DNA of 61,287 nucleotides from an uncultured Alphaproteobacteria bacterium (GTDB lineage: Bacteria; Pseudomonadota; Alphaproteobacteria; JAAXGF01). The stretch is from positions 1 through 61,287 of the forward strand of contig CAYYWV010000001.1 of assembly GCA_964475385.1 (NCBI GenBank). The letters are read 5' to 3'. Made by a program: the position numbers and the translations under genes. Shown piece by piece: positions 4,200 through 25,285 of this stretch. Below the pieces are notes generated by a model that did no database searches, was not told the DNA's origin, and was given only the letters and a program-made list of their open reading frames with translations. Position 1 is the first letter of the stretch. Each line of letters begins with the position of its first letter.

Positions 4200-5102
4200 A
4201 TGAACAGAGAGGTCATCATCACCTGTGCGGTGACCGGCAGCGCCGACACCGTAGGCAAGCACCCGGCGATCCCGGTGACGCCCGAAGAGATCGCCGCCGC
4301 CGCCATCGACGCGGCCAAGGCCGGGGCGGCGATCGCCCATATCCACGTCCGCGATCCCGAGACCGGACAGACGAGCCGCGATCCCTCTCTGTTTCGCGAG
4401 GTGGTCGCCCGGCTGCGCGAGTCCGAAACCGATATCATCATCAACCTGACGACCGGAAGCGGGGGGCGCTGGATGCCCGGCGCCGACGACCCCATCGTCG
4501 GCGATCCGGCGAGCACGCTCGCGCGTCCCGAGGAGCGCGTCGCCCATGTCGAGGAGCTCCTGCCCGAGATTTGCAGCCTCGACTGCGCGACCCTCAACTT
4601 CGGCGAGCAGGTGTTCGTGAACACGCCGGCGCATCTTCGCGTCATGGCGCGGCGTATCCGCGATTGCGGCGTCAAGCCCGAGCTCGAGGTGTTCGACGCC
4701 GGCCATGTCCGGCTCGCCTGTCGCCTGATCGAAGAAGGGTTGATCGAACGTCCGCCGCTGTTCCAGATCTGTCTCGGCATTCCGTGGGGCGCGCCGGCCG
4801 AGACTCGGGTCATGACCATGCTTCGCGATCTTCTGCCGACGGATGCGATCTGGGCGGGCTTTGGGATCTCGCGCATGGAGATGCCGATGGTCGCGCAAGC
4901 CGTGTTGCTCGGCGGCCATGTGCGCGTCGGGCTCGAGGACAACCTCTATCTCGATCGTGGGGTGTTCGCGTCCAACGCTCAGCTCGTCGAACGCGCGGTC
5001 GAGATCGTCGAGCGGCTGGGGGCGCGGGTGGTCGGCCCGGCCGAGGCGCGCGAGATCCTCGGCCTTTCCCCGCGCGAAGCGACGACCGTTCAAGAGGGAT
5101 AG
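4200..5102 (+). CDS. Beta-keto acid cleavage enzyme (BKACE / 3-keto-5-aminohexanoate cleavage, DUF849) family
   Basis: [53 protein letters not shown] is the typical BKACE N-terminus. The start is trimmed to the ATG at 4200, behind GGGAAGGG. Confidence 0.75.
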
Positions 5103-5103
5103 C

Positions 5104-6039
5104 ATGACGATGCGCGCCGTGTTCGTCGACTGCCCGCCGTTTCTGGCGGACCTGTACTCGCCCGAGCTGCAAGCGATCGTTCCCGGGCTCGAGGTCAACG
5201 TCGGCGATTCGGACGCCGAAAAGACCATCGCCCTTCTCGACGGCGCGGTCGCGGCGCTTAACGACCATTGCTATATGCCCGGAGACGTGCTCGCCGCCTG
5301 CCCGAGCCTCAAGGTCATCGTCTTCATGGGAACCGGCGCATCGAGCTACATCGACCTTGCGGCCGCCCGGCGGCTGGGGATTCGCGTGCGGACGTTTTCG
5401 GGCTACGGCGACCGTTCGATCGCCGAGCACGCGCTTGCGCTCATGTTCGCCGCCGGCCGTCAGATCGCGCGGATGGACCGCGGCATCCGCGCCGGCGATT
5501 GGGTGGTGCGCGACGGCATCGAGTTCGCGGGCAAGACGCTGGGCGTCGTCGGCGTAGGCGGGATCGGGCGCGAGATGGTCCGGCTCGGCGCGGCGCTCGG
5601 CATGGACGTGATCGCGTGGAACCGCTCGGGCGTGCCCGAAGACCTGCCGTGTCGCGCGGTTGGGCTCGACGATCTGCTCGCGCGCGCGGATGTGGTCTCG
5701 CTTCACCTCGCGCTCAACGAGGAGACCGAGGGCATCATCGACCGCCGTCGCATCGGGCTGATGCGCAAGACCGCGATCCTCGTCAACACCGCGCGCGGCG
5801 CTCTGGTGGACGAGGCGGCGCTCGCCGAAGCGCTCGCCGCGGGCGCGATCCGCCACGCCGCCCTCGACGTTTTCGGCGAGGAGCCGCTCGCCCTCGACCA
5901 TCCGTTCTGTCGGCTCGACAACGTGACGCTTTCGGCGCACGCCGCCTTCATGACCGCCGAGGCCTCGGTCCGGCTGTGGCGACGCGCGCTCGGCATCCTC
6001 AAGGAGGAGCTCGCCGTTCTCGCCGCGGCTGACGGATAG
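5104..6039 (+). CDS. D-isomer-specific 2-hydroxyacid dehydrogenase family, NAD-binding
   Basis: Rossmann motif GVVGVGGIGREM. NTARG, and an HxA-type catalytic His near the C-terminus (LSAHAAF). The ATG lies 1 nt after the BKACE stop. Confidence 0.8.
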   Translation: MTMRAVFVDCPPFLADLYSPELQAIVPGLEVNVGDSDAEKTIALLDGAVAALNDHCYMPGDVLAACPSLKVIVFMGTGASSYIDLAAARRLGIRVRTFSGYGDRSIAEHALALMFAAGRQIARMDRGIRAGDWVVRDGIEFAGKTLGVVGVGGIGREMVRLGAALGMDVIAWNRSGVPEDLPCRAVGLDDLLARADVVSLHLALNEETEGIIDRRRIGLMRKTAILVNTARGALVDEAALAEALAAGAIRHAALDVFGEEPLALDHPFCRLDNVTLSAHAAFMTAEASVRLWRRALGILKEELAVLAAADG

Positions 6040-6054: not shown

Positions 6055-6079
6055 GCGGCCTCCGATGGTCGGAGGCCGC
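6055..6079 (+). terminator. Perfect 11-bp stem / 3-nt loop hairpin after the dehydrogenase gene
   Basis: gcggcctccga-tgg-tcggaggccgc, followed by an A/T-rich stretch (cacaaaaaattt). Confidence 0.5.
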
Positions 6080-6265
6080 GGAGTTCACAAAAAATTTACC
6101 TTAGAGCCTTTCCACGAAAGATTGGGCCGACGCCGGTTCGTCTGCGCGCTCGCCGGCTGTTTGACGCCTTTAATTCCGCGCCTGCGCGCCTGTGCTGAGG
6201 CGCAGGCGGCTGCTTGCCCAGAGGCCCTTACGGCGCTTCCGAAAGCCCGAGTTATGGGCATTGTC

Positions 6266-6282
6266 TTGTATACCAGATATGG
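6266..6282 (+). promoter_or_regulatory. GntR/FadR-type operator candidate TTGTATACCAGATATGG upstream of tctC
   Basis: Palindromic GTATAC core inside TTGTATACCA. 15 of 17 nt are identical to a second copy at 9632-9648. It lies about 125 nt upstream of the tctC start. Confidence 0.45.
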
Positions 6283-6406
6283 CATATCGTATTTGCGGTA
6301 CCGGACAGGGTCCGCCCAAGGGGGAATGGCGGCGGCTCGACCGGTCGCCGGCGACCCGGGAAGGCGAGGGCTCAGGCGTCCGGTATCGTCAAGCAGGGAG
6401 GAAAAG

Positions 6407-7399
6407 ATGGACCTCGCACGCAGAACAGTGGTCACCGGGTTTGGCGCGTTGGCGATGCTGGCGCTTGGGTTTTCGGCCGCGCCAACGGCGGCCGTCGCAG
6501 GCTGGCAGCCGCAGAAACCCGTCGAGTTCATCATCATGGCCGGCCAAGGCGGCGGCGCCGACCGGCTCGCCCGTCTGATCCAAAGCATCATCGAAAAGAA
6601 CAAGCTTTCGCCCCAGCCGTTCATTCCGATCAACAAGCCGGGCGGCTCGGGCGCCGAAGCGCTGCGCTATCTCAAGGACAATGCGGGCAACCCGCACATC
6701 ATCATGGCGACGCTGAACAGCTACTACACGACGCCGTTGCGCAACCCCGGGCTTGGCGTCGACATCGCCGAGTTCACGCCGATCGCGCGGCTTGCGGAAG
6801 ACACCTTCCTTCTCTGGGTGAACGCCGACACCGACATCAAGACGGTCGACGATTTCGTCGCCGCGGTGAAAAAGGCCGGTCCCAAGAACTGGATCATGGG
6901 CGGCACCGGCAAGGGGCAGGAGGATTCGCTGGTCACCGCCATGCTCGAGAAGGCCTACGGGATCAGCATGACCTACGTGCCGTTCAAGGGCGGCGGAACC
7001 GTGGCCAAGAACCTGATCGGCAAACATATCAACTCGACCGTCAACAACCCATCCGAGCAGATCGGCTTCTACCAGGCCGGAAAGTCGCGGCCGTTGGCCG
7101 CTTTCACGCCCGAGCGGCTCGACGCCTTTCCGGACGTGCCCACCTTCCGCGAGCTCGGCAAAGACCTCGTCTACTTCATGCAGCGCAGCATCGTCGCGCC
7201 GCCTGACATGCCCAAGGAGGCCCAGGCCTTTTATGTGGACCTGTTCCGCAAGGTCTACGATTCGGACGAGTGGGTCTCGTACTCGAAGAAGAAGTCGCTC
7301 AAGCGCGCCTGGCTTACGGGCGATGCGCTCACCCAGTATTTCCTCGCCGAGCGCGAGAAGCACCGGGCGTTGCTCAAAGCGATGGGCGAGATCAAGTAG
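6407..7399 (+). CDS. tctC: Tripartite tricarboxylate transporter substrate-binding protein (Bug/TctC family)
   Basis: Signal peptide MDLARRTVVTGFGALAMLALGFSAAPTAAVA. Bug-family body (PVEFIIMAGQGGGAD, VPFKGGG). It is followed by tctB and tctA. The upstream 114 codons of the track ORF look non-coding. Confidence 0.85.
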   Translation: MDLARRTVVTGFGALAMLALGFSAAPTAAVAGWQPQKPVEFIIMAGQGGGADRLARLIQSIIEKNKLSPQPFIPINKPGGSGAEALRYLKDNAGNPHIIMATLNSYYTTPLRNPGLGVDIAEFTPIARLAEDTFLLWVNADTDIKTVDDFVAAVKKAGPKNWIMGGTGKGQEDSLVTAMLEKAYGISMTYVPFKGGGTVAKNLIGKHINSTVNNPSEQIGFYQAGKSRPLAAFTPERLDAFPDVPTFRELGKDLVYFMQRSIVAPPDMPKEAQAFYVDLFRKVYDSDEWVSYSKKKSLKRAWLTGDALTQYFLAEREKHRALLKAMGEIK

Positions 7400-7450
7400 G
7401 CCGCCGCGGGCGAGCGACAAGAGCGGGCGTAAAGCGAGGAGGCTGGCGGC

Positions 7451-7948
7451 ATGCGCAGGGCCGAGCTGGTCACCGCCGCGGTGCTTGCGGTCTTCTCGCT
7501 CTACCTTATGTGGAAGAGCGCCGAGCTGCCCATCGGCTGGATTCCCGACGAAGGACCGGGGGGCGGCGCGTTCCCGTTCTGGCTTTCGGTTGGAATGCTG
7601 GTGTGCAGCGTGGTGATCTTTTATCGCGCGCTGAAAGGGCAGACCCCGGCTTCCGTCTCGACCGAGCCGTTCATGGACGGCCCCGGGCTCAAGCTCTTTC
7701 TGGTCGCGGCGGGCTCGCTCACCGTCATGATCGGGCTCATTCAGGTGGTCGGCGTCTATGTCGCGGTGCCCCTGTTCCTCGTCTTTTACGTCCGCGTGTT
7801 CGGAGGGCATTCGTGGCTGACCGCCGGGTTGCTCGCTCTCGCGACCCCGGTGGTCACCTTCTTCTTCTTCGAGATCGGGCTCAAGATCCTGCTGCCTAAA
7901 GGCGTGACCGAGCCCTTGTTCTACCCGCTCTTCCAGTACTTCCTCTGA
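7451..7948 (+). CDS. tctB: Tripartite tricarboxylate transporter small membrane subunit (TctB family)
   Basis: A 165-aa four-helix membrane protein located between tctC and tctA. Confidence 0.75.
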   Translation: MRRAELVTAAVLAVFSLYLMWKSAELPIGWIPDEGPGGGAFPFWLSVGMLVCSVVIFYRALKGQTPASVSTEPFMDGPGLKLFLVAAGSLTVMIGLIQVVGVYVAVPLFLVFYVRVFGGHSWLTAGLLALATPVVTFFFFEIGLKILLPKGVTEPLFYPLFQYFL

Positions 7949-8008
7949 CGCCGTTTCGGCGCTCTGGCGGTTCGGGTTCGGCGGAGGAAGCAGGAGCGAC
8001 TGGAAACG

Positions 8009-9541
8009 ATGGAAATTCTTTCGCATCTGATCGACGGCTTCGTCACCGCGTTCCTGCCGATGAACCTGATGCTCATCATTCTCGGCTGCGTGGTCGGGCT
8101 GTTCGTGGGCGCCATGCCGGGGCTGGGCTCGGTCAATGGAGTGGCGATTCTGCTGCCGGTGACCTTTCTGGTCCCGCCGACCTCGGCGATCATCTTTCTC
8201 GCCGCGATCTACTACGGCGCGATGTACGGGGGCGCGATCTCGTCGGTGATGCTCGGCATCCCGGGGGCCTCGACCGCGGTCGCGACCGTGTTCGACGGCC
8301 GACCGCTCGCGCTCAAGGGCAAGGCCGATCTCGCGCTGACCGCGGCGGCGGTGGCCTCGTTCACGGGCGGCACGATCTCGGTCGTCCTGTTCACCCTTTT
8401 CGCGCCCCCGCTCGCCGACTTCGCGCTTGCGTTCGGTCCCGCCGAGGAGTTCGCGCTCATGATCGTCGCCTTCGCGACCTTCATCGGGCTCGGCGGCGAC
8501 GACGTCGCCAAGACCTTCTTTTCGATTTTCGTCGGTCTGGTGCTGAGCGCGGTCGGCCTCGACGTGGTGAGCGGAATGCCGCGCCTGATCTTCATGGACC
8601 TGCCGGGGTTTTACCACGGCATCAACTTCCTTGTGCTTGCCATCGGCATCTACGGCATCGGCGAGATTCTGTGGACCATCGAGCAGAGCCGCGGCAAGGT
8701 CAGCCTTATCCAGGCTCGCGTCACGCCGGGGCGGATCGTGAAGGCGCTGGGTTCGCTCAAGTCCACGTTCGGCGCCATGACGATGGGCTCGTTCCTCGGC
8801 TACTTCGTCGGCATTTTGCCGGCGGCCGGCGCGACCCCGGGCTCGCTCATGGCCTACGGCATGGCGAAAAGCATGTCGCGGCACCCCGAGCGCTACGGGA
8901 CCGGCGAGGTCAGCGGCGTGGTCGCGCCCGAATCGGCCAACAACGCGGCGAGCACCGGCTCGATGCTGCCCATGCTGACGCTGGGCATCCCGGGCTCGCC
9001 GACCACCGCGATCTTGCTCGGCGGCATGATCATCTGGGGGCTCGAGCCCGGGCCGCTCCTGTTCATCGACCAGCAGGAATTCGTCTGGGGCCTGATCGCG
9101 AGCCTCTATGCCGCCAATCTCTTCACCCTGATCGTGAATCTCGCTTTCATCCCCTTGTTCATCTGGGTGCTCAAGCTGCCGTTCACGATCCTCGCGCCGA
9201 TCATCTTCGTGCTTTGCGTCATCGGCGGCTATGCGCCCACCAACTCGATGCACGACGTCTGGTTGATGCTGATCTTCGGCATCGCGGGCTTTCTATTGCG
9301 TAAGCTCGACTACCCGATGGCCCCCGCGGTGCTCGCCATCGTGCTCGGTCCGCTGGCCGAAAAGGCGCTTCGTCAATCGCTGATCATCTCGCAGGGCTCG
9401 ATGAGCATCTTCGTCGAGCGTCCGCTTTCGGCGATCTTCCTCGCGCTCGCCGCATTGATGTTCATCTATCCGTTGCTTCGCGGACGGCTGCGGGCGGCGC
9501 GCCGGCGGGCCGCGGCCGCAGGCGATGGGAGCGGCTCGTGA
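8009..9541 (+). CDS. tctA: Tripartite tricarboxylate transporter large permease (TctA family)
   Basis: A 510-aa polytopic membrane protein. GAMPGLGSVNGVAILLP and GIPGSPTTAILLGG are typical TctA segments. Confidence 0.85.
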   Translation: MEILSHLIDGFVTAFLPMNLMLIILGCVVGLFVGAMPGLGSVNGVAILLPVTFLVPPTSAIIFLAAIYYGAMYGGAISSVMLGIPGASTAVATVFDGRPLALKGKADLALTAAAVASFTGGTISVVLFTLFAPPLADFALAFGPAEEFALMIVAFATFIGLGGDDVAKTFFSIFVGLVLSAVGLDVVSGMPRLIFMDLPGFYHGINFLVLAIGIYGIGEILWTIEQSRGKVSLIQARVTPGRIVKALGSLKSTFGAMTMGSFLGYFVGILPAAGATPGSLMAYGMAKSMSRHPERYGTGEVSGVVAPESANNAASTGSMLPMLTLGIPGSPTTAILLGGMIIWGLEPGPLLFIDQQEFVWGLIASLYAANLFTLIVNLAFIPLFIWVLKLPFTILAPIIFVLCVIGGYAPTNSMHDVWLMLIFGIAGFLLRKLDYPMAPAVLAIVLGPLAEKALRQSLIISQGSMSIFVERPLSAIFLALAALMFIYPLLRGRLRAARRRAAAAGDGSGS

Positions 9542-10022: not shown

Positions 10023-10718
10023 ATGAATGTCATACGCGCAGCCGTTCAGCCGATCGACGTCAACTTCAGCCTTAAGGACAAGACCTACGAGGCGCTCAAG
10101 CAGGCCATCGCCGCGATGAACATCTACGCCCACCCCGGCGAGCCGCGGCTCGACGAGCGCCAGCTCGCCAAGGATCTCGGGGTCTCGCGCACGCCGATCC
10201 GCGAGGCGATCGCGCGTCTCGAGCAGGAGGGCTTCGTCCGCATCGTGCCGCGGCGCGGCGTGTTCATCGTGCGCAAGTCGAAGCGCGAGATCATCGAGAT
10301 GATCACGGTCTGGGCGGCGCTCGAAAGCATGGCCGCGCGGCTGATCACGCTGCACGCCAGCGACGAGGAGATCGCGAGCCTGCGCCGCATGTTCGCAACC
10401 TTCGACGACGACAAGGACAAGGTGAACGCCGAGATCGACGAATATTCGGAGACCAACATTCGGTTCCATCAGGCGCTTCTCAAGATGAGCCATAGCGCGC
10501 TGTTGAACCAGATGACCGAGAACCTGTTCATCCACATGCGTTCGATCCGTCAGCAGACGATCTCCGAGGACAACCGCGCGAGCCGGTCGATCATCGACCA
10601 CATGAACATCATCGAGGCGCTCGAGCAGCGCGACACCGAGCTCGCCGAGCGGCTCACTCGGCAACACACCCTCGATCTCGCGGCCCATGTGGAGAAGAAC
10701 GTCGATTATCTGGACTGA
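10023..10718 (+). CDS. GntR-family transcriptional regulator, FadR (FCD) subfamily
   Basis: Winged-HTH segment LDERQLAKDLGVSRTPIREAIARLEQEGFV, followed by an all-helical FCD-like domain. The start is trimmed to MNVIRAAV; the upstream 166 codons are Arg/Gly/Ala-rich non-coding-looking sequence. Confidence 0.85.
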   Translation: MNVIRAAVQPIDVNFSLKDKTYEALKQAIAAMNIYAHPGEPRLDERQLAKDLGVSRTPIREAIARLEQEGFVRIVPRRGVFIVRKSKREIIEMITVWAALESMAARLITLHASDEEIASLRRMFATFDDDKDKVNAEIDEYSETNIRFHQALLKMSHSALLNQMTENLFIHMRSIRQQTISEDNRASRSIIDHMNIIEALEQRDTELAERLTRQHTLDLAAHVEKNVDYLD

Positions 10719-10806: not shown

Positions 10807-12537
10807 ATGGCAGAAGCGGCGAAGCGCGATCACGCGAACGATCCCACGCCTGAGGGCGCGAACGCGACCATCTCGGGCGGACATCTCGTGGCCAAGGCGC
10901 TCAGGAACGAAGGCATCGACGTCATCTTCACCCTGTGCGGGGGCCACATCATCGACATCTACGACGGCTGCCTCGACGAAGGCATCAAGATCATCGACGT
11001 GCGCCACGAGCAGGTCGCGGCCCACGCGGCCGACGGCTATGCGCGCATGACCGGGCGACCGGGCTGCGCCGTGGTGACCGCAGGTCCGGGCACGACGGAT
11101 GCGGTGACCGGCATCGCCAACGCCTTCCGCGCCGAGAGCCCGATGCTGATGATCGGCGGCCAGGGCGCGCATTCGCAGCACAAGATGGGCTCGCTCCAGG
11201 ATCTGCCGCACGTCGACATCCTGCGCCCGATCACCAAGTTCGCCGCCACCGTGCCGACGACCGAGCGCGTCGCCGACATGGTGTCGATGGCCTTCCGCGA
11301 GTGCTTCCTCGGCGCCCCGGGGCCGTCGTTCCTCGAGATTCCGCGCGACGTGCTCGACGCCAAGGTCGATCTGGCCAAGGCGCGCATCCCCGAGGCCGGC
11401 CGTTACCGCGCTTCGACCCGGGTGCTCGCCGATCCGGACGATATCGAGCGCGCGGCCGACCTTCTGGTGCGTTCCGAACGGCCCTGCATCCTGCTCGGCA
11501 CCCAGGTCTGGACCTGCCGGGCGGCCGCGGCCGCCGCCTCGCTGGTGCGCAAGCTCAACATTCCGGCCTATATGAACGGGGCCGGGCGGGGCACGTTGCC
11601 GCCGGGCGATCCGCACCACTTCCACCGCACCCGGCGCTACGCTTTCGACAAGGCCGACGTGATCGTGATCGTCGGCACCCCCTTCGACTTCCGAATGGGC
11701 TACGGCAAGCGCCTGCGCGCCGACGCCACCGTGATCCAGATCGACATGGACTATCGCACCGTCGGCAAGAACCGCGACATCTCGCTCGGGCTCGTCGGCG
11801 ACGTCGGCCGCATCCTCGAAGCGATCGAGGCCGCCGCTTCGGGCCGCGCCGATAACGGCGCGCAGGCCCGCAAGGGCTGGCTCGAGGAGCTGCGCGCCGA
11901 GGAGGCGGTCCGCTACGAGAAGCTCCTGCCTCAGTTCCGCTCCGACGCGACCCCGATCAGTCCGTATCGGGTCGCCTGGGAGATCAACGAGTTCCTGACC
12001 GAGGACACGATCTACATCGGCGACGGCGGCGATGTGGTCACGATCTCGGCCCAGGCGGTGCAGCCTCGCGCGCCCGGCCACTGGATGGACCCGGGACCGC
12101 TCGGCACCTTGGGCGTCGGCGTCCCCTTCGCCATGGCGGCCAAGCACGTCCATCCCGAGAAGGAGATCTTCTGCTACTTCGGCGACGGCGCCTTCGCGCT
12201 CACCGGCTGGGACTTCGAGACCTGCGTGCGCTTCGGCCTGCCGTTCCTGGGCGTGATCGGGAACAACTCGGCGATGAACCAGATCCGCTTCGGCCAGATC
12301 GCCAAGTATGGGCCCGAGCGCGGGAACGTCGGCAACAAGCTCGGCGACGTGCCGTTCGAGAAGTTCGCCGAGATGCTCGGCGGCCACGGCGAGGCGGTGC
12401 GCGAGCCCAAGGACATCCGCCCGGCGCTCGAGCGCGCCCGCGAGGCGGTGAAATCGGGCGTGCCGGCGCTGGTCAACATCTGGGTCAACCCGGACGAGTA
12501 CGCGCCCGGGACCAAGAACCAGACCATGTACAAGTGA
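10807..12537 (+). CDS. Thiamine-diphosphate enzyme of the acetolactate synthase / oxalyl-CoA decarboxylase / 2-hydroxyacyl-CoA lyase superfamily (probable formyl-CoA-forming decarboxylase or lyase)
   Basis: N-terminal Pyr domain (VRHEQVAAHAADGYARMTGRPGCAVVTAGPG). ThDP motif GDGAF-x25-NN. It lies directly upstream of frc. Confidence 0.7.
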   Translation: MAEAAKRDHANDPTPEGANATISGGHLVAKALRNEGIDVIFTLCGGHIIDIYDGCLDEGIKIIDVRHEQVAAHAADGYARMTGRPGCAVVTAGPGTTDAVTGIANAFRAESPMLMIGGQGAHSQHKMGSLQDLPHVDILRPITKFAATVPTTERVADMVSMAFRECFLGAPGPSFLEIPRDVLDAKVDLAKARIPEAGRYRASTRVLADPDDIERAADLLVRSERPCILLGTQVWTCRAAAAAASLVRKLNIPAYMNGAGRGTLPPGDPHHFHRTRRYAFDKADVIVIVGTPFDFRMGYGKRLRADATVIQIDMDYRTVGKNRDISLGLVGDVGRILEAIEAAASGRADNGAQARKGWLEELRAEEAVRYEKLLPQFRSDATPISPYRVAWEINEFLTEDTIYIGDGGDVVTISAQAVQPRAPGHWMDPGPLGTLGVGVPFAMAAKHVHPEKEIFCYFGDGAFALTGWDFETCVRFGLPFLGVIGNNSAMNQIRFGQIAKYGPERGNVGNKLGDVPFEKFAEMLGGHGEAVREPKDIRPALERAREAVKSGVPALVNIWVNPDEYAPGTKNQTMYK

Positions 12538-12582
12538 CGGAGACGATCCGCTTCAGGCGATTGGCCAACGGGGAAGACCATC

Positions 12583-13815
12583 ATGAGTAAAGCGTTGGAG
12601 GGAATCCGCGTCCTCGACATGACCCACGTCCAGTCGGGGCCGTCGTGCACCCAGATCCTGGCTTGGTTCGGCGCCGACGTCATCAAGGTCGAGATGCCCG
12701 GGCGCGGCGACATCACGCGCCAGCAGCTTCGCGATCTGCCCGACGTCGACAGCCTCTACTTCACGATGCTGAACTGCAACAAGCGCAGCATCACCGTGAA
12801 CACCAAGACCGACCGCGGCAAGGAGATCTTCCGGCGGCTTCTCAAGGCCTGCGACGTGATCGTCGAGAACTTCGCCCCCGGCGCGCTCGCCCGCCAGGGC
12901 TTCCCCTGGGAGGTCATCCACGAGATCAACCCGCGTATCGTCTACGCCTCGATCAAGGGGTTCGGCCCCGGTCCTTTCGCCGACTTCAAGGCCTACGAGA
13001 CCATCGCCCAGGCCATGGGCGGGGCGATGAGCACCACCGGCTGGGAGGACGGGCCGCCGACCTCGACCGGGGCGCAGATCGGCGATTCGGGCACCGGAAT
13101 CCACTGCGTGGCCGGGATTCTCGCCGCGCTCCTGCATCGCGAGCGCACCGGCCTCGGCCAGCGGGTCGAGGTCGCCATGCAGGACGCCGTGCTCAACCTG
13201 TGCCGGGTCAAGCTGCGCGACCAGCAGCGCCTCGCCCACGGGCCGCTCAAGGAATATCCCAACAAGACCTTCGGCGATGCGGTTCCGCGCTCGGGCAACG
13301 CCTCGGGCGGCGGCCAGCCCGGCAATGCGCTGCGCTGCGCGCCGGGCGGCCCCAACGATTACATCTACGTCATCATCCAGCCCCAGGGCTGGGCGCCGCT
13401 GATGAAGCTGATCGGGCGCGAGGATCTGATCGAGCACCCAGACTATGCGACGCCCGAGGCCCGGCTCGACCGGCTCGACGAGTGCTTCGCCCTGATCGAG
13501 GAATGGACCAGCCAGCGTCATAAGACCGAGGTGATGGCCGCGCTCAATGCGCTCAACGTGCCTTGCGGGCCGATCCTCGACATGAAGGAGCTGATCGAGG
13601 ACGAATCGCTCGCCCAGCGCGGCGCGGTGGTCACGGTCGAGCACCCCGAGCGCGGGCCGTTCAAGACCGTGGGCTGCCCGATCAAGCTCTCGGCCTCGCC
13701 GGTCGAGGTCACCACCTCGCCGCTTCTCGGCGAGCACACGGAAGAGATCCTGCGCGAGATCGTGGGCTATGGCGACGACGAGATCGCCGCCGCCCGCGAG
13801 GAGGGCGCGATCTGA
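12583..13815 (+). CDS. frc: Formyl-CoA:oxalate CoA-transferase (class III CoA-transferase)
   Basis: Colinear with Frc as I remember it: [63 protein letters not shown], glycine loop [18 protein letters not shown]. Confidence 0.85.
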
Positions 13816-13848
13816 TCCGGGAGGGGCGCATTTGGAAGGGGAGACAGC

Positions 13849-14769
13849 ATGCGGATCGTCGTCAACGGCCAACAGGCCTTCGGCAAAGCGGTGCTCGACG
13901 CCCTCGTCGAGCGCGGCGAGAACGTGGTCGCCGTCTATTGCGCGCCCGACAAGCCGGGCGGGAAGATCGACCCATTGAAGGAGGCGGCGCTTGGGCACGG
14001 GATTCCCGTCCATCAGCCGGCGTCGTTCAAAAGCCCTGAGGTGCTCGAAGAGTTCAAGGCGCTCGCGCCCGACCTCGCGGTGATGGCCTATGTGGTTCTT
14101 CTGGTGCCCGAAAGCGTGCTCAATGCGCCGCGGCTCGGCACCATCCAGTATCACCCCTCGCTGCTTCCCCGCCACCGCGGGCCGAGCTCGATCAACTGGC
14201 CCATCATCCAGGGCGAGACCGAGACCGGGCTCACCATCTTCTGGCCCGACAAGGGGCTCGATACGGGGCCGATCCTGTTGCAGAAGAAGGTGCCCATCGG
14301 CCCCGACGACACGCTCGGCAGCCTTTACTTCGACCATCTCTTCCCGCTCGGCGTCGAAGCGATGATTGAGGCGGTGGATCTCGTCCGCGCCGGCCGCGCG
14401 CCGCGAGTCCCGCAGGACGAAAGCCAAGCCACCTACGAGGGCTGGTGCCGCCGCGAGGACGTCGAGATCGACTGGGCCAAGCCCGCGCGCCAGGTCTACA
14501 ACCTGATCCGCGGCGCCAACCCACAGCCCGGCGCCTGGACCCGGCAGGCGGGGCGCATGGTCCAGATCTACGATTCGGCGCTTCAGGCCGAGGCCGCGCC
14601 CGACGCCGCGCCCGGTACGGTCACGGCGGTCGGCGACGATGGCGTCACGGTGGCCGCCAAGGATGGCCAGATCCTCGTCAAACGCGTTCGTCCCGAAGGC
14701 GCGGGCAAGATACCGGCGGCCGAGTTCGCCGCCGAAGCGGGAATAGAGGCGGGAGCGGTCTTCGGCTGA
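13849..14769 (+). CDS. Stand-alone formyltransferase resembling the N-terminal formyl-transfer domain of 10-formyl-THF dehydrogenase (not a typical Fmt/PurN)
   Basis: MRIVVNGQQAFG. IQYHPSLLPRHRGPSSINW (Tyr-His rather than Asn-x-His). FWPDKGLDTGPILLQK. GRAPRVPQDESQATYEGW. A C-terminal Formyl_trans_C-like subdomain. Confidence 0.7.
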   Translation: MRIVVNGQQAFGKAVLDALVERGENVVAVYCAPDKPGGKIDPLKEAALGHGIPVHQPASFKSPEVLEEFKALAPDLAVMAYVVLLVPESVLNAPRLGTIQYHPSLLPRHRGPSSINWPIIQGETETGLTIFWPDKGLDTGPILLQKKVPIGPDDTLGSLYFDHLFPLGVEAMIEAVDLVRAGRAPRVPQDESQATYEGWCRREDVEIDWAKPARQVYNLIRGANPQPGAWTRQAGRMVQIYDSALQAEAAPDAAPGTVTAVGDDGVTVAAKDGQILVKRVRPEGAGKIPAAEFAAEAGIEAGAVFG

Positions 14770-14816
14770 TTCGCGACGCGCCCGCCTTTCCACATCGCGA
14801 ACGGAGGCTTGGTGCC

Positions 14817-15257
14817 ATGAATGTACAATCGGTTTTGGAGCGCGCCGCCGGTCCGCCCCTGACCACGCGCCCCGATGCGCCCGTGGCCGAGGTCGCCGAG
14901 ACCTTGGCCGACGACGGCACTGGCGCGGTCGTCGCCTGCGATCCCAACGGCTCTATCGCCGGCATCGTCTCGGAGCGCGATCTCGTCCGCGGTCTGCGTG
15001 AGCACGGCGAGCGATTGCTCGCCATGCGGGTGGGCGATTTGATGACCCGTTCGGTGGTCACCTGCTCGCCCGAGCACAGCGTCGAGGACGCGCTTCGGCT
15101 GATGACCGAGAATGGCGTCCGCCATGTCCCCGTGGTCGGGGACGACGGCGCGCTCGCCGGCGTGGTCAGCATTCTCGACCTCGTGCGCACGCGCCTCGCC
15201 GAGGTCGAAAGCGATTACGGCGCGCTCCGCACCTTCATGGAGACGCGGATCGAGTAG
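14817..15257 (+). CDS. Stand-alone CBS-pair domain protein
   Basis: Two CBS repeats (GIVSERDLVRGL, VRHVPVVGDDGALAGVVSILDLV). The start is trimmed to MNVQSV; the rest of the track ORF overlaps the previous gene out of frame. Confidence 0.8.
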   Translation: MNVQSVLERAAGPPLTTRPDAPVAEVAETLADDGTGAVVACDPNGSIAGIVSERDLVRGLREHGERLLAMRVGDLMTRSVVTCSPEHSVEDALRLMTENGVRHVPVVGDDGALAGVVSILDLVRTRLAEVESDYGALRTFMETRIE

Positions 15258-17006: not shown

Positions 17007-17083
17007 TGGTCGGAGTGAGTGGATTCGAACCACCGGCCCCCGCCTCCCGAAGACGGTGCTCTACCAGGCTGAGCTACACTCCG
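17007..17083 (-). tRNA. tRNA-Pro (anticodon CGG)
   Basis: Folded by hand: acceptor CGGAGTG/CACTCCG, D-arm GCTC/GAGC, anticodon arm CCGTC-TTCGGGA-GGCGG, T-arm GGTGG-TTCGAAT-CCACT, encoded CCA. Confidence 0.9.
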
Positions 17084-25209: not shown

Positions 25210-25285
25210 TGGCTCCCCGGGCCGGACTCGAACCAGCGACCTAGTGGTTAACAGCCACCCGCTCTACCAACTGAGCTACCGGGGA
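25210..25285 (-). tRNA. tRNA-Asn (anticodon GTT)
   Basis: Folded by hand: acceptor TCCCCGG/CCGGGGA, D-arm GCTC/GAGC, anticodon arm GGTGG-CTGTTAA-CCACT, T-arm GCTGG-TTCGAGT-CCGGC, encoded CCA. Confidence 0.9.

Follow-up and report, generated by a model that had tools for sequence, protein, structure and literature searches.

A formyltransferase of the ALDH1L N-terminal type encoded beside formyl-CoA transferase: a candidate link between CoA-bound and folate-bound formyl groups

Introduction

What is a formyltransferase, annotated in public databases as a tRNA-modifying enzyme, doing in an operon for the turnover of formyl-coenzyme A (formyl-CoA)? The question is raised by a stretch of 61,287 nucleotides from an uncultured Alphaproteobacteria bacterium (GTDB lineage Bacteria; Pseudomonadota; Alphaproteobacteria; JAAXGF01), which corresponds to positions 1 to 61,287 of the forward strand of contig CAYYWV010000001.1 in NCBI GenBank assembly GCA_964475385.1 and is referred to below as the window. 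Four genes on the + strand concern us here: gene 1 (10807-12537, 576 amino acids (aa)) encodes a thiamine diphosphate (ThDP) enzyme, gene 2 (12583-13815, 410 aa) a formyl-CoA transferase (Frc), gene 3 (13849-14769, 306 aa) the formyltransferase (FT), and gene 4 (14817-15257, 146 aa) a pair of CBS domains. An original prediction, made from the sequence of the window, had read the four as one operon, in which gene 3 would pass formyl groups from formyl-CoA straight to tetrahydrofolate (THF), bypassing free formate and the ATP-dependent formate-THF ligase (Fhs).

Judged by its motifs and its phylogeny, gene 3 is an enzyme of the type found at the N-terminus of 10-formyl-THF dehydrogenase (FDH, ALDH1L1), and not an ordinary methionyl-tRNA formyltransferase (Fmt) or PurN. 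We further propose, with moderate confidence, that it exchanges a formyl group reversibly between CoA, at its thiol, and THF, at N10, as an accessory to a formyl-CoA cycle that would be run by Frc and the ThDP enzyme. The identity of the protein, its genomic setting and the reaction that may follow from the two are considered in turn, and the proposal is then weighed against its rivals and against the systems already known.

Identity of the formyltransferase

Gene 3 has the two-domain architecture of Fmt, Formyl_trans_N (E=1e-33) and Formyl_trans_C (E=4e-22) in Pfam, but it fails the curated Fmt model TIGR00460, with 185.4 bits where 201.5 are required. Its top sequence matches in the Protein Data Bank (PDB) are the hydrolase domains of ALDH1L1/FDH (236 bits, E=5e-69, ~40-44% identity; entries 1S3I, 2BW0, 4QPD and 7RLU), with Fmt at 176 bits and ~35% identity, ArnA at 128 bits and HypX at 60 bits. 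A Foldseek search with the AlphaFold2 (AF2) model of the protein, which has a predicted local distance difference test score (pLDDT) of 92.4, likewise returns the FDH hydrolase domain first.

For the comparison of motifs, the hits of an exhaustive search were clustered at 50% identity and the representatives of the clusters were used. Gene 3 carries QYHPSLLP, SSINW, IFWPD and ATYEG; its family and the ALDH1L N-domains have in common [Q/I/C]-[Y/F]-HPSLLP, in which the catalytic Asn is lost, together with SxINW, IFWxD and ATYEG, whereas the Fmt class has N-x-H-[AGS]-SLLP (N-[VIL]-H), APIQ and ATYAP. The place of the catalytic Asn is taken by Gln in gene 3, and this Gln is invariant across its family. 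Also invariant, among 22 family members, are His102, Ser104 and Asp138, which align with the FDH triad His106, Ser108 and Asp142. A further difference lies in loop 1, where gene 3 is shorter than Fmt by about six residues: of 55 Fmt-class sequences, 45 have the G[RK]G motif of this loop, and none of 40 FDH-like and none of five ALDH1L sequences has it. We take this loop of Fmt (PDRPxGRGxK), from the literature on the E. coli enzyme, to be the part that recognizes the acceptor stem of the tRNA.

Two neighbour-joining analyses, each with 100 bootstraps, grouped the ALDH1L N-domains with all the bacterial proteins that lack the Asn, apart from Fmt; support for this clade was 100% and 99%, and gene 3 does not nest inside Fmt. 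The FDH-type assignment made in the original prediction thus stands, supported by the motifs, by the score under the Fmt cutoff, by the absence of the tRNA loop and by the separate clade, and every peptide motif that it quoted was found in the translations. Gene 3 is a stand-alone protein, with neither a fused 4'-phosphopantetheine carrier domain nor an aldehyde dehydrogenase domain. ALDH1L-type N-domains of eukaryotes (P0172, P0230, P0234 and P0253) fall inside a clade that otherwise consists of stand-alone bacterial proteins, which suggests, as far as the tree goes, a bacterial origin of the eukaryotic domain.

Distribution and annotation of the family

With one genome taken per species, a scan for the family motifs gave at least 598 loci, and the neighbourhood counts reported here for the family refer to the best 80 of these. 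The family occurs in Alpha- and Gammaproteobacteria, Entotheonella, Methylomirabilota/Rokubacteria, Dehalococcoidia, Longimicrobiales and the SUP05 clade. Open reading frames (ORFs) in loci of high G+C content were chosen by a score of codon-position GC, as choosing the longest ORF favoured antisense frames.

Members of the family are named 'methionyl-tRNA formyltransferase' by NCBI, JGI and Prokka-type annotation (P0005, P0021-P0024, P0037 and others, and LA6_005544 'fmt_2' of CP031587.1). This looks like a systematic misannotation, since the members fail the Fmt cutoff and have neither the catalytic Asn nor the tRNA-binding loop.

The Asn-less superclade is wider than this family. A member on plasmid pSymB of S. 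meliloti (CP050512.1, L171:8001-8939), also annotated as Fmt, reads GFHPAALP and lies among polysaccharide biosynthesis genes; it probably has a different function, and on account of its setting and its different motif it was rejected as a member of the same subfamily. Among the family members that are not linked to frc, homologs of D-isomer 2-hydroxyacid dehydrogenases directly follow the FT gene in three loci (L011, L026 and L029), and a 2-hydroxyacid dehydrogenase gene also stands beside a distant FDH-like relative (L086:7995-8963); these neighbours may point to a connection with glyoxylate or hydroxypyruvate. At another locus lacking frc (L044:7136-7948), a homolog of FolD, the methylene-THF dehydrogenase/cyclohydrolase, lies directly upstream of the FT gene; this adjacency is an independent link to folate metabolism.

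Genomic setting of the formyltransferase

An frc gene lies directly upstream of the FT gene, on the same strand, in 31 of the 80 family loci (25 in the 63 with enough upstream sequence), and the gap between the two has a median of 37 bp (n=47, over both locus sets). The Frc-linked members are scattered over the whole family tree and across phyla. Upstream of Frc stands a ThDP gene of one of two kinds, either an ortholog of gene 1 (66-84% identity) or a bona fide Oxc (oxalyl-CoA decarboxylase), the latter scoring 1020 bits against the TIGR03254 cutoff of 739. The association of frc with this formyltransferase, which the original prediction proposed to check in other genomes, therefore recurs across phyla and beside two different ThDP partners.

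Both types of operon share orthologous genes for a GntR regulator, the tripartite tricarboxylate transporter TctABC and Frc, and often include Fhs, a Usp protein and subunits of an NAD-linked formate dehydrogenase. In both types, the ThDP gene is immediately preceded by the GntR/FCD ortholog (55-79% identity), and TctA orthologs (49-78% identity) lie upstream of HACL-like-type and Oxc-type operons alike, HACL being 2-hydroxyacyl-CoA lyase; TctC orthologs are found upstream in many related loci, and TctB is likewise conserved. Over the 80 loci, the only recurrent neighbours of the FT gene are Frc, ThDP enzymes, Fhs and formate dehydrogenase.

For a reciprocal view, loci were gathered from orthologs of gene 1 in metagenomes. 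Frc directly follows the gene 1 ortholog in 50 of 55 such loci, but FT follows in only 10 of 43 (23% of ThDP-Frc operons). On these counts the ThDP-Frc pair is the core of the operon and FT a recurrent accessory. Of the 80 loci, only two have a homolog of the two-CBS-domain protein of gene 4 (E=3e-29 in Pfam) near FT, one of these two homologs being encoded on the other strand, and 33 ThDP-centred loci have none; although probably co-transcribed here, gene 4 does not belong to the conserved module. Hence, the four-gene unit originally predicted holds for the recurrent ThDP, frc and FT genes, with FT reduced to an accessory, and does not hold for the CBS gene.

A cultured example is available in Paracoccaceae strain La 6, whose plasmid pLA6_002 carries the order GntR-oxc-frc-'fmt_2'-fhs-Usp-TctBA, 'fmt_2' (LA6_005544) having the Asn-less motif. 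The island around this operon contains two sets of formate dehydrogenase genes, folA, ppc, sucCD-like ligases, a PanE-like reductase gene, glyA, hprA and folD. The SucC/SucD-like genes of this plasmid (L170:1893-4046) lie beside ppc, and genes for such two-subunit CoA ligases also occur within a few kb in other loci (L014, L038, L042, L067, L078, L090-L092, L100, L108, L119, L123, L124 and L156); malate thiokinase is one candidate for their product, and a different acyl-CoA synthetase acting in the pathway is another.

Formate-THF ligase and an alternative CoA ligase

Fhs, an enzyme that produces or consumes 10-formyl-THF, is encoded in 25 of 160 loci. FT is present in all 25, the gap between the two genes having a median of 51 bp, and the synthetase described next is present in none of them. 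In the ThDP-centred loci, the slot directly after Frc is held by FT in 11 cases and by an NDP-forming acyl-CoA synthetase in 16, never by both. Over the whole locus, 14 loci have FT, 16 have the synthetase, none has both and 11 have neither (Fisher p=1.4e-4). The synthetase, a protein of ~711 aa with the domains ATP-grasp_5, CoA_binding_2, Succ_CoA_lig and Ligase_CoA_2, follows frc in L090, L094, L120, L121, L124, L126, L128, L136, L138, L142, L151, L153, L156, L160, L162 and L166 (e.g., L166:9556-11688). Formate, oxalate or another acid are candidates for its substrate.

We read FT, with or without Fhs, and the ligase as alternative ways of tying a thioester cycle to ATP. As alternatives in one slot, both would create or spend a CoA thioester, which supports a role of FT in CoA-thioester chemistry. 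Moreover, since Fhs is the most faithful neighbour of FT and the alternative in the slot is a ligase, FT would act in series with Fhs, probably in the direction of formyl-CoA. The bypass of Fhs that had been predicted originally fits poorly with such an arrangement, in which every Fhs locus carries FT and the slot otherwise holds a CoA ligase.

The CoA-transferase and the ThDP enzyme

The equivalog cutoffs identify gene 2, a family III CoA-transferase (CoA_transf_3 in Pfam), as a bona fide Frc, just as had been predicted: it scores 649 bits on TIGR03253 (cutoff 504) and 684 on NF003809 (cutoff 442). The equivalents of the catalytic residues Asp169, Gln17, Tyr59 and Tyr139, in what we take to be the usual Frc numbering, are kept together with the GGGQ loop in all Frc copies, whichever ThDP enzyme is the partner.

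Gene 1 has the Pfam domains TPP_enzyme_N, M and C. Oxc and HACL chemistry both yield formyl-CoA, and gene 1 is the presumed source of this compound. Its top PDB matches are HACL/HACS (272 bits), with Oxc lower at 172-198 bits, but it fails the Oxc model TIGR03254 (233 bits against 739) and reaches 350 bits on the HACL model NF058623, where the cutoff is 600. The residues Tyr120/Glu121, Tyr483 and Ser553/Arg555 of Oxc, numbered as we presume them to be in O. formigenes, all differ in gene 1 and are kept in validated Oxc proteins from sister loci. The orthologs of gene 1 are marked by motifs of their own, MGSLQDLPHV (where HACS has MGAFQEERQV), NNSAMNQIR[YF]GQ and a C-terminal EYAPGTKxQTMYK. By these features gene 1 is best described as a distinct subfamily of the Oxc/HACL clade. 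The superfamily to which it was originally ascribed is right; the protein falls short of the curated models of both Oxc and HACL, and differs from Oxc in the active-site residues and from HACS in the motif compared.

The gene 1 subfamily takes the place of Oxc in operons that are otherwise orthologous, with the same GntR, TctABC, Frc, FT and Fhs. Because of this replacement, and because the catalytic residues of Frc are identical in both types of operon, gene 1 may be an alternative oxalyl-CoA decarboxylase. It could also be a (new) 2-hydroxyacyl-CoA lyase.

Proposed reaction and role

The reaction that we propose for FT is formyl-CoA + THF <-> CoA + 10-formyl-THF. Several lines of evidence point to it. 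Formyl-CoA is the only metabolite common to Frc, the HACL-like ThDP enzyme and the Oxc partners, which supports it as a substrate. The closest characterized relatives pass the formyl group from 10-formyl-THF to the thiol of 4'-phosphopantetheine, which supports a thiol as the acceptor; and a search of the window and of the surroundings of FT in the 80 loci found no gene of the acyl carrier protein (ACP) type, so that free CoA is the likely thiol.

In the cycle, Frc would hand the CoA of formyl-CoA over to an acid entering the cycle, which is probably oxalate brought in by TctABC, and would set formate free; the ThDP enzyme would split the resulting acyl-CoA and restore formyl-CoA. FT would join this thioester pool to the one-carbon (C1) pool on folate and, in loci with an adjacent Fhs, to formate and ATP. 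Taken together, Fhs and FT would do the work of an ADP-forming formyl-CoA synthetase, with the net reaction formate + ATP + CoA <-> formyl-CoA + ADP + Pi.

Why should such a cycle need FT? Frc and the ThDP enzyme only interconvert formyl-CoA and acyl-CoA, so that the sum of the thioesters is constant and the cycle cannot create its own pool; losses of thioester must therefore be balanced by net thioester synthesis. The pool would shrink by hydrolysis of formyl-CoA or by withdrawal of oxalyl-CoA for assimilation, for which the PanE-like reductase and the serine-cycle genes of the La 6 island could serve. The likeliest physiological role of FT would be to start and top up the cycle, with 10-formyl-THF as the formyl donor and formyl-CoA as the product, in the direction shown for LctF and proposed for HypX, although it may simply equilibrate the CoA and folate formyl pools. 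More tentatively, and with clearly less confidence than we place in the reaction, Fhs, FT and Frc may form a folate- and formate-catalysed, ATP-driven CoA-thioester route that starts and refills the formyl-CoA cycle in primary metabolism. Along this route, formate and ATP would give 10-formyl-THF, which with CoA would give formyl-CoA, which with oxalate would give oxalyl-CoA.

A number of observations weigh against the proposed reaction and role. The window itself has no Fhs gene. FT is present in only the minority of ThDP-Frc operons given above, so the cycle works without it, and 49 of the 80 family members are not adjacent to frc. When a recurrent neighbour of these frc-unlinked members was sought, no Pfam family was found in more than five of 123 proteins. 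Distant FDH-like subclades, mostly on short contigs, sit in unrelated contexts, with one CoA-transferase, one transporter of the major facilitator superfamily, and genes for a short-chain dehydrogenase/reductase (SDR), a 2-hydroxyacid dehydrogenase and a protein of the PNPOx family. As the pSymB member among polysaccharide genes illustrates, neither membership of the clade nor loss of the Asn fixes the acceptor by itself. The branch order inside the superclade of Asn-less and ALDH1L proteins is unresolved in the neighbour-joining tree. Fmt structures superpose on gene 3 as well as FDH does, with template modeling (TM) scores of 0.88-0.91, so that the fold does not separate the FDH type from the Fmt type and the decision has to come from motifs and phylogeny. 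As for direction, the thermodynamic and stoichiometric arguments are our own reasoning, and reverse flow into folate is easy on thermodynamic grounds and may, under certain conditions, be the main one.

Alternative explanations

The alternative that survives best accepts the reaction and reverses the flow: formyl-CoA would be converted into 10-formyl-THF and would feed C1 assimilation through folate, bypassing free formate and Fhs. We consider this unlikely, although it has real points in its favour. By our own estimate from general hydrolysis energies of thioesters and 10-formyl-THF, this direction is favoured by about 5-15 kJ/mol. Two loci of SUP05/TMED-type metagenome-assembled genomes (L041 and L062) have a ThDP gene followed directly by FT, with no frc, an order that suits this direction better than ours. 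The folD, glyA and hprA genes of the La 6 island indicate that folate-bound C1 units are assimilated there, and the FolD gene directly upstream of FT in L044 would fit as well. However, draining formyl-CoA removes the CoA donor of Frc, and the cycle would stop without another activating enzyme, of which none accompanies FT. Fhs, far from being dispensable, is the most constant partner of FT, and an exclusive alternative that forms or spends thioesters suits an arrangement in series with Fhs over a bypass. A supply role, towards formyl-CoA, is for these reasons somewhat more likely than a drain. In L041 and L062, the gene after FT is a homolog of isocitrate dehydrogenase kinase/phosphatase (AceK); a related locus, L071, keeps frc.

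Gene 3 might instead formylate something else, for instance an amine metabolite, or a sugar nucleotide, or the phosphopantetheine of a carrier protein. In that case, its place beside frc would reflect shared regulation of C1 genes only. The superfamily is indeed versatile, with Fmt, ArnA and sugar formyltransferases all among the matches, the frc-unlinked members occur in varied contexts, and distant members of the superclade lie beside SDR, 2-hydroxyacid dehydrogenase or polysaccharide genes. Nevertheless, no gene for a carrier protein or for the production of an acceptor recurs near FT, where the sole recurrent neighbours are those of formyl-CoA and formate metabolism listed above, and the catalytic Asn of the amine formyltransferase compared (Fmt) is absent. 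We regard this explanation as improbable, and as weaker than reversed flow.

Lower still we place the possibility that gene 3 is a 10-formyl-THF hydrolase, which would balance the folate pool by yielding formate and THF, like the isolated N-domain of ALDH1L1 in vitro or like PurU. The ALDH1L1 domain is named a hydrolase domain (PMC6802093), and its His-Ser-Asp triad is shared by gene 3. But a hydrolase beside Fhs, as it would stand in 25 loci, would make an ATP-wasting futile cycle, and it would explain neither the link with Frc nor the mutual exclusion with a CoA ligase; besides, the physiological acceptor of ALDH1L1 is a thiol (PMC8748788).

That gene 3 is a second Fmt, as public annotation of many members has it and as the shared two-domain fold (TM ~0.9) might suggest, is scarcely credible, given the missed TIGR00460 cutoff, the Gln in place of the catalytic Asn, the lack of the loop 1 GRG in 40 of 40 family-type sequences and the separate clade.

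Comparison with known systems

The reaction itself is not new. LctF, described in 2025, makes formyl-CoA from 10-formyl-THF and CoA in vitro, in the biosynthesis of lactacystin (PMC11730586), and the N-domain of HypX (HoxX) was proposed in 2019 to transfer the formyl group from 10-formyl-THF to CoA, giving formyl-CoA (PMC6802093). Formyl transfer between folate and CoA was thus already known, contrary to the original prediction, whose author knew of no description of the link. LctF is likened to gene 3 here by its description: it is a stand-alone Fmt-like protein with the reaction that we propose. It serves the starter unit of a polyketide synthase/nonribosomal peptide synthetase in the secondary metabolism of Streptomyces, whereas the setting of gene 3, with Frc, an Oxc- or HACL-like enzyme and Fhs, is one of primary catabolism or assimilation. 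HypX (PDB 6J0P and related entries) is distant from gene 3, at ~21% identity; it is fused to an enoyl-CoA-hydratase-like decarbonylase, holds CoA as a bound prosthetic group, and delivers CO for the maturation of hydrogenase.

The N-domain of ALDH1L1/FDH is the closest relative in both sequence and structure, and shares with gene 3 the fold of two subdomains, the triad, the lost Asn, the four motifs (YHPSLLP, SxINW, IFWxD and ATYEG) and the clade. Its formyl acceptor is the 4'-phosphopantetheine thiol (PMC8748788); the contacts of the N-domain with the phosphopantetheine arm were unresolved in the cryo-electron microscopy paper on ALDH1L1. Unlike ALDH1L1, gene 3 has no carrier, fused or nearby, does not go on to oxidize the formyl group to CO2 on the same polypeptide, and is found with Frc and a ThDP enzyme. 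Fmt resembles gene 3 in architecture and nearly in fold; gene 3 departs from it in the features set out above, which are the missed curated cutoff, the lost catalytic Asn, the absent tRNA loop 1 and the separate clade.

Two further systems are comparable in role and not in kind. YfdE is an acetyl-CoA:oxalate CoA-transferase that primes the Oxc/Frc cycle of E. coli (PMC3720670). Like FT in the role proposed here, it is an accessory encoded with oxc and frc, and it provides the initial thioester of CoA in the absence of formyl-CoA; however, it is a family III CoA-transferase that uses acetyl-CoA, and is unrelated to gene 3 in family and chemistry. The NDP-forming acyl-CoA synthetase (ACD type) occupies the same slot as FT, to its exclusion, and would have the same net reaction as Fhs plus FT if its substrate were formate. 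Unlike FT, it is a single ATP-grasp/CoA-ligase protein and independent of folate.

In the full-text literature searched, the coverage of which is incomplete, no description of this FT in frc/oxc operons was found. What appears to be undescribed is the large, separate ALDH1L-N-type family annotated as Fmt, its placement between frc and fhs in oxalate-type operons of primary metabolism, and the role proposed here for it, as a feeder or valve of the formyl-CoA cycle.

Layout of the window

Within the window, genes 1 to 4 are separated by gaps of 45, 33 and 47 bp, and a plausible Shine-Dalgarno sequence precedes each of them. The gene for a GntR/FCD (FadR-type) transcriptional regulator (10026..10718, +; GntR + FCD in Pfam) ends 88 bp before the start of gene 1. 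The places of the four ORFs and the gaps between them, as well as the regulator as neighbour of the four same-strand genes, agree with the original prediction. Between 10718 and 15257, terminator-like sites were searched for and none were found; no match to the sigma-70 consensus was found, and the window as a whole has no riboswitch. Beyond gene 4, a convergent gamma-glutamyltransferase gene closes the unit on its 3' side.

On the 5' side of the regulator, four genes lie on the same strand. They encode a protein of the D-isomer 2-hydroxyacid dehydrogenase family (4843..6039, +, 398 aa, start codon uncertain; Pfam 2-Hacid_dh_C, E=5e-56), given here as context only; a TctC-type periplasmic solute receptor (6065..7399, +; Pfam TctC, E=2e-27); the small membrane subunit TctB of the tripartite tricarboxylate transporter (7451..7948, +; Pfam TctB, E=3e-18); and its large membrane subunit TctA (8009..9541, +; Pfam TctA, E=4e-144). 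The TctC domain covers residues 180-440 only of its ORF, and the true start is on that account probably further downstream. An NAD-formate dehydrogenase was considered for 4843-6039 and rejected (112 bits against a cutoff of 329); this gene remains under every NCBIfam cutoff. Two long antisense ORFs, of 746 aa (12553-14793, -) and 954 aa (6389-9253, -), overlap real genes and were rejected as artefacts of high G+C content, on the evidence of the codon-position pattern GC1 > GC3. The sole Rfam matches in the window are two tRNA genes (17010-17083, -, and 25213-25285, -).

Significance

Members present in the genomes of at least several hundred species have been named methionyl-tRNA formyltransferase, which looks like a systematic annotation error that would be corrected, and free-living bacterial relatives of the ALDH1L1 N-domain have been identified, which bears on its evolution. 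The ThDP subfamily that replaces Oxc in orthologous operons is a second object worth attention. For engineering, if FT acts as proposed, synthetic one-carbon pathways that assimilate formate or formaldehyde by means of HACL/HACS and formyl-CoA would gain a natural link, working in both directions, by which formate is turned into formyl-CoA with the help of Fhs.

If confirmed, the proposed reaction would make FT the first enzyme of central metabolism to join the CoA-bound and the folate-bound formyl pools. It would explain how cycles of the Oxc/Frc type, which are unable to make their own thioester, are started and refilled, and how oxalyl-CoA can leave them for assimilation. Should the CoA-thioester route through Fhs, FT and Frc also prove true, this widespread family, at present annotated as 'Fmt', would represent a natural synthase of formyl-CoA, and the stand-alone bacterial counterpart, possibly the ancestor, of the N-domain of animal ALDH1L1.

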